The notes beneath the pieces were generated by a model. The model was not told the DNA's origin, ran no database searches, and saw only the letters and a list, made by a program, of their open reading frames with translations. 64,000 bases of DNA from Deltaproteobacteria bacterium (lineage in GTDB: Bacteria; Myxococcota_A; UBA9160; SMWR01): assembly GCA_031405455.1 (NCBI GenBank), contig JANNIY010000151.1, positions 440 to 64,439 of the forward strand, in the 5' to 3' direction. The number at the start of each line of letters is the position of its first letter. Within the stretch, counting starts at the first letter, position 1. Of this stretch, positions 107 to 6,988 are shown one piece after another. The position numbers were made by a program, and so were the translations under genes.

Positions 107-1000
107 TCAGACCAGCCCGACGACGTAGGCGATCCAGGCCGGATCGTCGGGGGCGTGTTCACGGCACGTGAAGACGTCGTTGCCGCGGCCGGTGTCCGAA
201 TCCGTGCCTTCCCAGTAGACCTCGGAGCGCGAGAAGCCGGCCTCGGCGAGCAGCTCGCGGATCTCGGGAATCGACCACAGCCGCCAGTCGTAGCTGAAGG
301 CGCGCCGGATCCGGCTGCCGTCCTTGAACTCGAAGTCGATGTGGTTGACCACGCGGTTCGTGATCGGGTCGAAGACGTGCTGGTCCCAGACGTAACGAAA
401 ATTTCGCACCCGTCGCCCCTCGCGCATGGTGCGCTGGGCGTCCGCGCCTCCGTAGGCATCGAGCAGCAGCATGCCCTCGGGAAGCAGCGTGGCCCGCGCT
501 CGCTGGAAGTACAGCAGCAGCTCGGCGCGCCGCTGGAAGAGGTAGTAGGAGAAGTTGAGGGCCGCCGTGACGTCGACTTTCGCGTGGCCGACGTCGCGCA
601 CGTCGCCCTCGATCAGCTTGATGCGCGCCGCCTGATCCGGCCGCAGGCGCGTCAGGTTGTGCTCGCGGCCCCAGCTGAGCGGTGCGGGGTCGAGATCGAT
701 CGCATACGCCCGGTTCTCGGCGTGGCGTTCCACCCAGCGGCAGGCGATTGCCGCCGTGCCGCAGAAATCTTCTCGAAACGAACGCGGCAGACGGCCATAG
801 TGCCGGCGAAAGACGCGATCGATCAGCCGGAAGTCGGCTTCCGGCTCCTGGACGCTTTCCTGGTAGAGCTCGTAGACGTTCGCTCGTGCCGCGAGGGTTT
901 GGCGGCGGGAGCGCGGCGGTTGGGAACGGGTGCGCGTCGCGGCGCGCGGATTCTCGCTCGCACGCACTGATTTTCCGACCGGCTCCTGCTTGCGCTTCAT
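107..1000 (-). CDS. Class I SAM-dependent methyltransferase
   Basis: From ORF 107..1171(-). It has a Rossmann-type SAM motif region (REDFCGTAAIACRW...AYAIDLD...IEGDVRDV...LLLDAYGG). I moved the start to ATG 1000 (MKRKQEP) because the Arg-rich upstream extension runs into the neighbouring gene. It lies 68 nt downstream of the DUF2063 gene on the same strand. Confidence 0.85.
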   Translation of the reverse strand: MKRKQEPVGKSVRASENPRAATRTRSQPPRSRRQTLAARANVYELYQESVQEPEADFRLIDRVFRRHYGRLPRSFREDFCGTAAIACRWVERHAENRAYAIDLDPAPLSWGREHNLTRLRPDQAARIKLIEGDVRDVGHAKVDVTAALNFSYYLFQRRAELLLYFQRARATLLPEGMLLLDAYGGADAQRTMREGRRVRNFRYVWDQHVFDPITNRVVNHIDFEFKDGSRIRRAFSYDWRLWSIPEIRELLAEAGFSRSEVYWEGTDSDTGRGNDVFTCREHAPDDPAWIAYVVGLV

Positions 1001-1067: not shown

Positions 1068-1895
1068 TCACGCGAGCGCGGCGAGCCAGCCTGCCTGTTG
1101 CCAACGCGCCAGCAGCGCGGCGGCGCGCGCAGGCGCCTGCGCCTCGCCGAGCCGCGCGGCCAGCGCCTCACAGATCTCGCCGAAGCGCGAGCCCGCGCGC
1201 GCGAGCCCGAGCGCCTCCGCCTCGATCGGCTCGAGCGCGCGATGAAAGACGCGCTCGTTCGTTCGCCAGACGCAGATGCATGTCGACTCCGGCGCGAGCT
1301 CGCCGGGGATCTCGGCAGCCTCGCGATCGTACGCGATGCGCACGCGATCGACGGGGAAGGCCAGCGTGAGGAGCGCGAGCGCGGATTGAAAGACGAAGCG
1401 AAGCTCCGCCCAGCGCTCCGGTGCGACTTCGGCGAGCGTCGCCTGCGACAACAGCGGGGCGTCGGCGGCGTCGAAGGCTTCGATCAACGCCCATTCGAGG
1501 CGCGCGAGATCAGCGGCGAACGCAACCCGCCGCCAGGCCCCTGGCGCGACGGCGAGGAAATCGGGCAGCCGCGCGCCCGCGTCGCGCAGCGACGGCTGAT
1601 TCGGCGGGTGCGCGCGCAGATAGGCGCTCACGAGTTCGTCGAAGGCCGGCTCGCCGAGCACGCGCGCGAGTGTGCCGAAATCGTCCGCGAGCACCTCGCG
1701 CAGGCGCTGGAACCAGGCGTGCGCGTAGATCTCGAGCCGCGCAGCCGCCGGCCGCTGCGGATCGCCGCGCAGCAGCGAGGCGACCTCGTTCTCCCGAACC
1801 CCCGCGCCCGTGGCGCTAGGTGCGGTGATCAGCTCGCGCAACCGCTGCTGCAGCTCGCGCAGCGGCGGATCCGGACTCGTTCGCTTCGCGTCCAT
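1068..1895 (-). CDS. DUF2063-family protein, HvfC/BufC-like partner of the MNIO enzyme (RiPP maturation)
   Basis: From ORF 1068..1934(-). The N-terminus LRELQQRLRELI...RLEIYAHAWFQRLREVLADDFGTL is typical of DUF2063 putative DNA-binding-domain proteins that follow DUF692 genes. The start is placed at ATG 1895, which has GAGGGAG upstream. Confidence 0.85.
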   Translation of the reverse strand: MDAKRTSPDPPLRELQQRLRELITAPSATGAGVRENEVASLLRGDPQRPAAARLEIYAHAWFQRLREVLADDFGTLARVLGEPAFDELVSAYLRAHPPNQPSLRDAGARLPDFLAVAPGAWRRVAFAADLARLEWALIEAFDAADAPLLSQATLAEVAPERWAELRFVFQSALALLTLAFPVDRVRIAYDREAAEIPGELAPESTCICVWRTNERVFHRALEPIEAEALGLARAGSRFGEICEALAARLGEAQAPARAAALLARWQQAGWLAALA

Positions 1896-2757
1896 ACTCT
1901 CCCTCGAGCGCTGCGGCCGCGACCGTGCGCGCACGTGCGACCTCCTGCACCAGCACGTCGAATTCGGGGATCAGATCGTCCCACTCGATGAGCGTCGAGA
2001 CGGGGCCCAGCCGGCGGAGCGCGCGCGCATAGAGATCCCAGACTTCGTCGCGCACGGGGTGATCGTGCGTATCGATCAACAGCGCGCCGTTCACGCTGTG
2101 TCCCGCCAGGTGGATCTGGAACACGCGCTCGGGCGGCACGCCATCCACATACGCATTGGCGTCGAAGCCGTGGTTGTGCGCGCTCACGAAGATGTTGTTC
2201 ACGTCGAGCAGCAGGCCGCAATCGGCCGACTCGCAGATCGCGCTGAGAAATTCCCATTCGGGCATCGCGTCGGCGTGGAACGACGCGTAGGAGGAGACGT
2301 TCTCGATCGCGATGCGGCGTCCGAGCGCGTCCTGCACGCGCGCGACGCGCGCGGCGACGTGGCGGACCGCTTCCTCCGTATAGGGAAGCGGGAGCAGATC
2401 GTGGAGGTTCTCACCCTGCACACCCGTCCAGCACAGATGGTCCGAGATCCAGAGGGGCTCGAAGCGCGCCGCGAGTGCCGCGAGTTCGCGCAGATAGGCG
2501 GCGTCGAGGGGATCGGTCGAGCCGAGATTGAGCGAGACGCCGTGCAGCACGAGCGGCGCGTGCGCTCGCACTTCGGCGAGCACGCGCAGCGGTCGGCCGC
2601 CAGCGATCATGTAGTTCTCGCTGATCGCCTCGAACCAATCGCTTTCGAGTTCGCCGCGCTTTGCGCGCGCGAGCACGTCGGGGTAGTGCCTGGGCCGCAG
2701 TCCCACGCCAAAGCCGAGGAACGGGGCGTCATGCGGGCGCGGCGGGAACGGCGGCAT
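1816..2757 (-). CDS. DUF692-family multinuclear non-heme iron oxidase (MNIO; MbnB/TglH/BufB/HvfB-like RiPP maturase)
   Basis: From ORF 1816..2967(-). Conserved DUF692 blocks are present: GFGVGLRPRHY, FEAISENY, LHGVSLNLGS, WISDHLCW, IAIENVSSY, LLLDVNNIFVSAHNHG, IHLAGH and TLIEWD. The start is at ATG 2757 (MPPFPP), 62 nt after the precursor stop. Confidence 0.9.
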   Translation of the reverse strand: MPPFPPRPHDAPFLGFGVGLRPRHYPDVLARAKRGELESDWFEAISENYMIAGGRPLRVLAEVRAHAPLVLHGVSLNLGSTDPLDAAYLRELAALAARFEPLWISDHLCWTGVQGENLHDLLPLPYTEEAVRHVAARVARVQDALGRRIAIENVSSYASFHADAMPEWEFLSAICESADCGLLLDVNNIFVSAHNHGFDANAYVDGVPPERVFQIHLAGHSVNGALLIDTHDHPVRDEVWDLYARALRRLGPVSTLIEWDDLIPEFDVLVQEVARARTVAAAALEGEYGREANESGSAAARAAAAVARADHRT

Positions 2758-2819
2758 GCGGCTCCGATGCGCGGCGGAGCGGACGGCCGCGCCGCCCGCT
2801 CCGCCCGGAAAAACGCGAT

Positions 2820-3077
2820 CTACTTCTTCGCCGCGGCCTTCGCCGCCGTACACTCGTCGGGCGTCATCATCTCGTAGCCCTGGCCCTGGCAGGCATTCTG
2901 GCCGGAGCAGGCGTTGTGCGCGGTCTTGCAGGCGCTCTGGCCCTTGCACTGGTTCACGCCCTCGCACTTCACCGTCGCTTCGCTGCCGGCTTCGGATTCC
3001 GCGAGGGCGTGGCCGGCCGCACCGGCGACGAACAGCGCCGCGGCCGCGGAAGCCAGGACATAGGATCGGGTCTTCAC
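2820..3077 (-). CDS. Exported six-cysteine RiPP precursor peptide (bufferin BufA2 / HvfA-like), 85 aa
   Basis: Buried in ORF 2820..3194(-). GTG at 3077 is preceded by GGAGG with a 7-nt spacer. It has a Sec-type signal peptide (VKTRSYVLASAAAALFVAGAAGHALA). The mature part is ESEAGSEATVKCEGVNQCKGQSACKTAHNACSGQNACQGQGYEMMTPDECTAAKAAAKK, with six Cys. It sits directly upstream of the DUF692 and DUF2063 genes. Confidence 0.8.
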   Translation of the reverse strand: MKTRSYVLASAAAALFVAGAAGHALAESEAGSEATVKCEGVNQCKGQSACKTAHNACSGQNACQGQGYEMMTPDECTAAKAAAKK

Positions 3078-3122
3078 GTAGACACCTCCTCGGGTGATGC
3101 CGGCGGGGGATGGCCCGCGCGG

Positions 3123-3139
3123 CTGCGCATGCTGCGCAG
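3123..3139. promoter_or_regulatory. Perfect 7-3-7 palindrome CTGCGCA-TGC-TGCGCAG in the leader/promoter of the precursor gene
   Basis: Read directly from the sequence. It lies 46-62 nt upstream of the GTG start at 3077. It could be an operator or a 5'-UTR stem-loop. Confidence 0.3.
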
Positions 3140-3212
3140 GGGTTAGATGCAGCAATGCGCGCGGGGATTCAAGCCGCGCGTTCGGGGCGTTCACGCCGGT
3201 TCGGCCGGGAAC

Positions 3213-3239
3213 GCGAAAAGAGCCGCGAATCCGGCGGCT
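3213..3239 (-). terminator. Possible intrinsic terminator of metH
   Basis: On the minus strand the sequence reads AGCCGC-cggattc-GCGGCT followed by CTTTTCGCGTT, about 60 nt after the metH stop. The stem is only 6 bp and the U-tract is imperfect. Confidence 0.35.
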
Positions 3240-3301
3240 TCGCGCGCACAGCCCGACCTACGCAGCGTGTGCCGAGGCGGGCGGGGGGCGGGCTGGCGCG
3301 C

Positions 3302-6988
<3,687 letters not shown>

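Follow-up and report, generated by a model that had tools for sequence, protein, structure and literature searches.

A GTG-initiated bufferin-2-type precursor gene, bufA2, with adjacent bufB and bufC genes in an uncultured GC-rich bacterium

The locus described here raises two linked questions: where translation of a small reading frame begins, and what kind of protein that frame encodes. The window, that is the whole stretch of 64,000 nt of DNA that was analysed, carries the frame on the minus strand, and the mechanical list of open reading frames gives it as 2820..3194, with a length of 124 aa. A first-pass annotation, made from the letters of the sequence, had called this frame mis-delimited and had proposed in its place an 85-aa frame with a GTG start at 3077 and a 7-nt Shine-Dalgarno spacer. 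That shorter frame was borne out by direct reading of the minus strand, where the GTG occupies 3077-3075, the spacer preceding it is TGTCTAC (7 nt) and the TAG stop lies at 2822-2820. At a probability of about 0.9, we take the feature to be bufA2, the gene of a bufferin-2-type RiPP metallophore precursor and the first gene of a bufA2-bufB-bufC operon. The elements of the gene itself are the following.

2820..3077, minus strand: bufA2 coding sequence, GTG start, 85 codons plus a TAG stop (from the sequence, its translation and a match to NF050166)
3085..3090, minus strand: Shine-Dalgarno sequence AGGAGG, 7 nt before the GTG, invariant in the related loci L081, L082, L083 and L084
3000..3077, minus strand: Sec-type signal peptide, residues 1-26 (MKTR / SYVLASAAAALFVAGAAG / HALA), assigned by rules, with predicted cleavage after Ala26
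2823..2999, minus strand: core peptide of 59 residues with six Cys (38/44/50/57/63/76)

In translation the product reads V/M-KTRSYVLASAAAALFVAGAAGHALA up to the proposed cleavage point and ESEAGSEATVKCEGVNQCKGQSACKTAHNACSGQNACQGQGYEMMTPDECTAAKAAAKK beyond it; written without this division, the full pre-peptide is MKTRSYVLASAAAALFVAGAAGHALA-ESEAGSEATVKCEGVNQCKGQSACKTAHNACSGQNACQGQGYEMMTPDECTAAKAAAKK.

Two further start candidates lie in frame upstream of the GTG at 3077, namely a TTG at 3155, which would give a 111-aa form, and the codon at 3194, which is a GTG and not the ATG that had been reported for it. To compare the starts, the DNA of L081, L082, L083 and L084, four independent related loci with a BufA2 protein identity of 79-88%, was aligned over the interval between the metH stop codon and the start of bufB. 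The bufA2 GTG and the GAGGAGGTGTC(T/C)AC preceding it were unchanged in all four. The region upstream of the GTG was partly conserved as DNA, and its lengths (117, 115, 116 and 124 nt) were not multiples of three apart. Variable sites among the relatives were distributed over the three codon positions as 17/15/32 within bufA2 and as 19/19/19 upstream. The GC3 value was 0.89 in the 85 bufA2 codons and 0.72 in the 39 upstream codons, the neighbouring genes having values of 0.82-0.90. In L082, L083 and L084 the stretch that leads from the upstream in-frame stop to the conserved GTG contains no ATG, GTG, TTG or CTG, so the long form cannot exist in these three loci. Counted on the short form, the match to the BufA2 profile begins near residue 5, and the Logan assembly of run SRR20217200, in which this DNA is also present, has an 85-aa gene call starting at the GTG of 3077.

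A product of 124 aa from GTG 3194, or one of 111 aa from TTG 3155, whose N-terminus would be extended by a Pro/Arg-rich stretch before the hydrophobic segment, is extremely unlikely. The open frame does reach 3194 in the window, and nine of the 119 BufA2 homologues are recorded in over-extended form. However, the three relatives without any start codon in the equivalent frame, the frame-breaking length differences, the absence of codon periodicity among the upstream variable sites, the lower upstream GC3 and the beginning of the profile match all speak against the extension; moreover, no Shine-Dalgarno-like sequence was noted before 3194 or 3155, and the 43-residue n-region of the long form would be atypical for a Sec signal. 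The long form is already largely refuted, and translation of bufA2 can start only at GTG 3077, behind the strong AGGAGG. Since the upstream indels break the frame and no other start is available in L082, L083 and L084, the 124-aa frame is an artefact of longest-ORF listing, which takes the first start after a stop, and not an annotation error. The complaint that the frame was mis-delimited is therefore right in that the 124-aa ORF is not the true gene, but it overlooks that a list built on the first start after a stop must report such a form. The accompanying remark that small GTG-started genes are routinely missed or mis-started was too strong. About 10% of the homologues were affected (9 over-extended and 3 apparently truncated records out of 119), and about 90%, including GTG-started ones, stood at the family length. 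The gene thus makes a clean worked example of how the start of a small gene can be fixed, as an in-frame stop with no alternative start in the relatives corrects the longest-ORF list.

The 85-aa protein belongs to the BufA2 family. It scored 84 bits (E = 6.4e-24; cut-off 60 bits) with NCBIfam NF050166, the equivalog model for BufA2 family periplasmic bufferin-type metallophores, profile positions 3-76 of 79 being aligned to residues 7-81. A search of 5.8 billion proteins returned 120 homologues at E <= 0.001 (best 7.5e-37), most of them 83-90 aa long; the nearest recorded homologue is 88% identical, and two are named BufA2 by NCBI/UniRef. In view of the E value with the BufA2 model, the 120 homologues and the GC3 and codon-position signals, the observation lies far beyond chance. 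The six Cys codons begin at 2966, 2948, 2930, 2909, 2891 and 2852 (Cys38, 44, 50, 57, 63 and 76, respectively). The spacing claimed for them, C-x5-C-x5-C-x6-C-x5-C-x12-C (5-5-6-5-12), matched the translation exactly, and the claimed N-(Q/A)-C-x-G-Q repeats were found as three units (NQCKGQ, NACSGQ and NACQGQ), followed by a tail that is, as had also been said, rich in Lys. Conservation of the Cys positions, which had been expected, was found as well: all six Cys are invariant in an alignment of 51 homologous sequences, as are N42, G46, G59, N61 and G65, and the same spacing is common to 116 of 120 sequences (119 homologues and the query).

Structure comparisons added little. An AF2 model built from the 51 sequences places strands at residues 36-45 and 66-71 and a helix at 73-84, with a mean pLDDT of 59.6, which is of low confidence; this layout appears compatible with published BufA models as a loose match of secondary structure only. 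A sequence search of the PDB with the BufA2 family profile gave a chance match only (E = 0.97), and Foldseek of the AF2 model against the PDB returned nothing meaningful (best E = 8.6).

For the signal peptide, a set of simple rules was applied, covering charge, hydropathy and the -3/-1 residues. By these rules the n-region MKTR has a net charge of +2, the h-region consists of 18 uncharged residues with a maximum Kyte-Doolittle(11) value of 2.45, and A-L-A (residues 24-26) stands at -3/-1 before Glu27; several other sites with small residues at -3/-1 lie near the proposed cleavage point. The charged n-region and hydrophobic core that had been described are consequently recognizable, and the same architecture recurs across the family, in which the median h-region is 18 residues long, the n-region charge is +2 in 85 of 120 sequences and a median of 36 residues precede CysI (37 in the window protein). 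The end of the signal peptide, given previously as AHA-LA, reads G-H-A-L-A. Bufferins of Caulobacter were shown by mass spectrometry to be cleaved at the predicted signal-peptidase site, and the signal peptide of BufA1 exported a beta-lactamase fusion in that organism (PMC11626156). Lipoprotein-type Buf2 proteins, about 16% of the Buf2 family, are distinguished by a lipobox with Cys at +1 of the mature protein. The window BufA2 is not of that type, as it has no lipobox, no Cys before residue 38, and T-V-K at residues 35-37. A BufA2-like protein with the lipobox LGGC, and so a lipoprotein variant, was seen elsewhere (L028:1803-2087).

Two genes on the same strand follow bufA2.

1816..2757, minus strand: bufB, MNIO (DUF692) maturase of 313 aa, ATG preceded by GGAG (NF050167 and PF05114)
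1068..1841, minus strand: bufC, DUF2063 / RRE-type partner, 257 aa as recorded, TTG start (DUF2063 and NGO1945_C)

The gap between the bufA2 stop and bufB is 62 nt, and bufC overlaps the end of bufB by 26 nt. The bufB product scored 372.8 bits with NF050167 (MNIO_BufB; cut-off 310) and 1.4e-108 with Pfam PF05114 (MbnB_TglH_ChrH), and an identical 313-aa BufB is already on record. It carries the motif IEWDD with Asp-Asp at 260-261; the specificity position after the catalytic Asp is likewise Asp in 49 of 57 BufA2-linked MNIOs. The bufC product matched Pfam DUF2063 (1.4e-19) and NGO1945_C (1.4e-6), and with HvfC, the sole curated partner model used, it reached 67 bits, below the cut-off of 142. 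The start of bufC is uncertain, as it is recorded at TTG 1841 (257 aa), the longest ORF begins at GTG 1934 (288 aa) and the homologue in L081 is called at 211 aa. In the set of 84 related loci, a BufB gene stands after BufA2 in 59 and a BufC gene in 54. The family check that had been suggested for the precursor was answered in favour of the first-pass interpretation, with a match to the NCBI equivalog model and with BufB and a DUF2063 partner adjacent, as were the checks of start codon, signal peptide and Cys positions. No ECF sigma factor, anti-sigma factor, copper-responsive regulator, DoxX gene or second BufA2 copy was found in the window.

A methyltransferase-like gene (107..1000, minus strand; class I SAM, 297 aa) begins 67 nt downstream of bufC, and the interval contains no hairpin. 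Its product showed weak, sub-threshold RiPP matches (daptide MTase, E = 6e-4; ApyS, E = 0.012). As a fourth member of the operon it was considered and rejected, since it occurs only in L081 and L061 among the 84 loci, both of which also keep metH, and it is probably a mere neighbour.

On the model of the characterised Caulobacter vibrioides system and of related captophorins, a course of maturation can be proposed for the product. In the cytoplasm, a BufB/BufC complex would oxidise Cys44, 50, 57 and 63, each within N-x-C-x-G, to 5-thiooxazoles with a loss of 4 Da each, and the Lys residues after Cys44 and Cys50 would be read by Asp261 of BufB, as in the 'Cys-Lys' class of substrates. The peptide would then be exported by the Sec machinery and cut by signal peptidase I after Ala26. 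A Cys38-Cys76 disulfide would close a small fold of beta-sheet plus helix, and the resulting 59-residue product, lighter by about 18 Da overall, may bind excess copper in the periplasm. Heterocycles, disulfide, export and copper binding are all inferred here by analogy. In C. vibrioides, Buf2 shows a shift of -18 Da, the four central Cys lose 4 Da each and are reported as 5-thiooxazoles, and a CysI-CysVI disulfide is likely; bufferins bind copper and protect against copper stress, and Buf2 is induced by Cu and exported by Sec (PMC11626156). In the case of Buf1, BufB and BufC were both required and together enough, and modification did not depend on the signal peptide (PMC11626156). The identity of the heterocycle has been debated between 5-thiooxazole and oxazolone-thioamide, and recent work favours 5-thiooxazole. 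BufA2-type precursors are placed in the 'Cys-Lys' repeat class of captophorins, with NACKG as a common 5-mer, and the substrate Lys has been proposed to be recognized by an Asp beside the catalytic one in the MNIO (PMC13097082). The window locus shows both halves of this pairing, with Lys after Cys44 and Cys50 in the precursor and IEWDD in BufB. Iterative recognition of the repeat units by the maturase, suggested in the first-pass annotation, agrees with this published repeat class (PMC13097082), and as an idea it is already in published thinking and not new.

The residues directly after Cys44, Cys50, Cys57 and Cys63 of the window protein are Lys, Lys, Ser and Gln. The last of these sets it apart from the version in the Logan assembly of SRR20217200; in a comparison of 571 nt, position 2888 (L085:1150) was the single difference between the two assemblies. 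The codon concerned, 2886-2888, encodes residue 64, directly after CysV, and is CAG (Gln64) in the window and AAG (Lys64) in the Logan assembly. Among 119 homologues this residue is Lys in 88 and Gln in one. The Q64/K64 difference is due either to polymorphism between strains or to a mistake in assembly. Because Lys is the family norm after CysV, full four-fold modification is less certain for the Q64 allele.

The Q64 allele, in weakening one Cys-Lys motif, bears on the view that the protein is merely BufA2-like, a Cys-rich protein that reaches the periplasm without heterocycles and binds metal through plain thiols or disulfides. Stand-alone BufA2-like precursors may be unmodified according to the literature (PMC12452194), and no MNIO gene lies within 5 kb in 25 of the 84 BufA2-like loci (L002, L008, L020, L021, L032 and L044 among them). 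The window locus, however, is not of that kind: bufB and bufC follow closely in the same orientation and no T-run of a terminator intervenes, BufB scores above the cut-off of the curated maturase model with its catalytic Asp motif intact, and in Caulobacter an operon of the same three genes yields fully modified Buf2. An unmodified product is accordingly improbable here. There is even less to be said for a precursor of another MNIO-RiPP class, whether of the HvfA/oxazolin/fontiphorin type with EGKCG ('Lys-Cys') repeats, a DUF2282 BufA1 or a methanobactin-like peptide, and we give such an assignment hardly any probability. The window MNIO does also match the HvfB (262 bits), ApyH and MbnB models, the best curated match of its partner is HvfC, and about a third of the BufA2 homologues carry precomputed DUF2282 matches. 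Yet all matches of the MNIO to other classes fell below their cut-offs (HvfB 262 against 360, MbnB 69 against 325), whereas the BufB model was passed; the precursor has six Cys and not four, it lacks the EGKCG repeat, its Lys follows Cys and does not precede it, Pfam DUF2282 (PF10048) was absent from it even at E <= 10, and none of the other NCBIfam precursor models scored.

Six to eight of the 25 loci without MNIO adjoin genes for an ECF-type sigma factor, a putative anti-sigma factor and a DoxX-like membrane protein; a published survey placed sigma/anti-sigma genes in Buf1 clusters and not in Buf2 clusters, and stand-alone bufferin precursors have already been noted in the literature. In an uncultured Steroidobacter MAG (L010:4929-5991), bufA2 is followed by a bufC-like DUF2063 gene and then by a convergent MarR-like gene, and no MNIO gene was found within the 6.9 kb examined. 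Two BufA2-like genes stand in tandem at L027:4601-5249.

The non-coding DNA on both sides of bufA2 was also compared.

3100..3173, minus strand: conserved non-coding block, candidate promoter, operator or 5' leader (5' UTR), recognized by DNA conservation with frame-breaking indels
2773..2806, minus strand: GC-rich stem-loop after the bufA2 stop and before the bufB start, recognized by folding and by comparison of loci

The upstream block is conserved in L081 and in L082/L083, and partly in L084. It contains TTGAAT (3172-3167), CATCTAA (3149-3143), an inverted repeat CTGCGCA-GCA-TGCGCAG (3139-3123) and a second small hairpin, the first two elements being spaced as TTGAAT-N17-CATCTA. The consensus fold of the block has two small hairpins, and in L082 one of them shows a compensatory change (G>A / C>T). 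A scan of 2600-3400 with the sigma-70 consensus detected no promoter; to regard TGAATC-N16-CATC as an ECF-like promoter would be a guess. Further upstream, AGCCGC-CGGATTC-GCGGCT followed by CTTTTC (3215..3239, minus strand) is a possible weak intrinsic terminator after metH, although its T residues are too few for the terminator scan to have called it. If a terminator does stand there, bufA2 would have its own promoter.

The stem-loop between bufA2 and bufB has an MFE of -41.1 kcal/mol (z = -2.67 against dinucleotide shuffles) and is unique in the window. Its stem sequence is changed in close relatives with the pairing kept, and of 59 bufA2-bufB loci drawn from many lineages, 57 have a hairpin at the equivalent position, without conservation of sequence. 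Over these 59 loci, the 70 nt that follow the bufA2 stop had a median MFE of -30.8 kcal/mol, compared with -21.0 inside bufB and -20.1 upstream (paired Wilcoxon p ~1e-10). A T-rich run follows the hairpin in 16 of the bufA2-bufB loci; in the window there is no U-tract after it, a terminator consensus scan of 2600-3400 gave nothing, and no part of the whole window matched Rfam at gathering thresholds. Strong intercistronic stem-loops also occur in other RiPP, bacteriocin and pilin operons, where they separate a short first gene of high expression, the structural one, from the genes for the enzymes. The stem-loop after bufA2 probably either limits read-through or lends stability to the precursor mRNA, with the effect that precursor would be made in excess of enzyme. 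The wider proposal, that it is a family-wide regulator conserved in structure and free in sequence, acting as a partial terminator or as an mRNA-stabilising 3' end, and that it sets a high precursor-to-maturase ratio across the bufferin-2 operons of many phyla, is tentative, and we rate its chances at somewhat below even. Should it be true, the stem-loop and the structured, conserved 5' leader would together provide post-transcriptional tuning of bufferin output, a layer of control unmentioned in the bufferin papers searched, where neither a hairpin (in this sense) nor a stem-loop nor a terminator is spoken of. The near-universal hairpin between precursor and maturase is in any case a testable hint about operon stoichiometry, and it may be the sole element of the bufA2 locus that adds something new.

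The coding sequence itself is a new sequence in a family that was described in 2024 and is covered by a curated NCBI model, of which it is an ordinary member. Its correct annotation is an 85-aa, GTG-initiated BufA2 precursor, and that of the locus a bufA2BC copper-defence RiPP cluster of an uncultured GC-rich bacterium; beyond this correction the significance of the gene is small.

Three known systems invite comparison. The Lys-Cys captophorins, that is oxazolin/HvfA of Haemophilus influenzae, fontiphorin and gonophorin, resemble the window locus in their pair of MNIO and DUF2063 'PME1' proteins, in the proposed 5-thiooxazole chemistry and in a copper-related role. They differ in having EGKCG-type repeats, with Lys before Cys, and in an MNIO with Phe where the window BufB has Asp; FonBC leaves NACKG substrates unprocessed (PMC13097082). 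BufA1, or bufferin 1 (DUF2282, PF10048; the gig operon of Cupriavidus metallidurans), is also comparable as a Sec-exported, copper-binding small protein modified by MNIO and DUF2063 proteins, with a similar predicted fold, a disulfide from the outer Cys and 5-thiooxazoles from the inner Cys. It has four Cys, however, and usually a DoxX gene (bufD) and sigma/anti-sigma genes near it, and its DUF2282 domain is not matched by the window protein. The closest counterpart is BufA2, or bufferin 2, of Caulobacter vibrioides (CCNA_03001; buf2ABC; Buf_6/12Cys family; NF050166), to which the window protein is tied through the curated profile and not by direct alignment. Unlike that system, the window represents a different lineage on a metagenome-assembled contig of 69% GC, its assembly has Gln and not Lys after CysV, and no SigF/NrsF-type regulator was detected in it. 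What the two share is a small Sec-signal precursor with six conserved Cys and a core of similar size (59 residues in the window, 61 in Caulobacter), the bufA-bufB-bufC layout without DoxX, a BufB-type MNIO, and Cys-Lys motifs in the precursor together with an Asp after the catalytic Asp of the MNIO.
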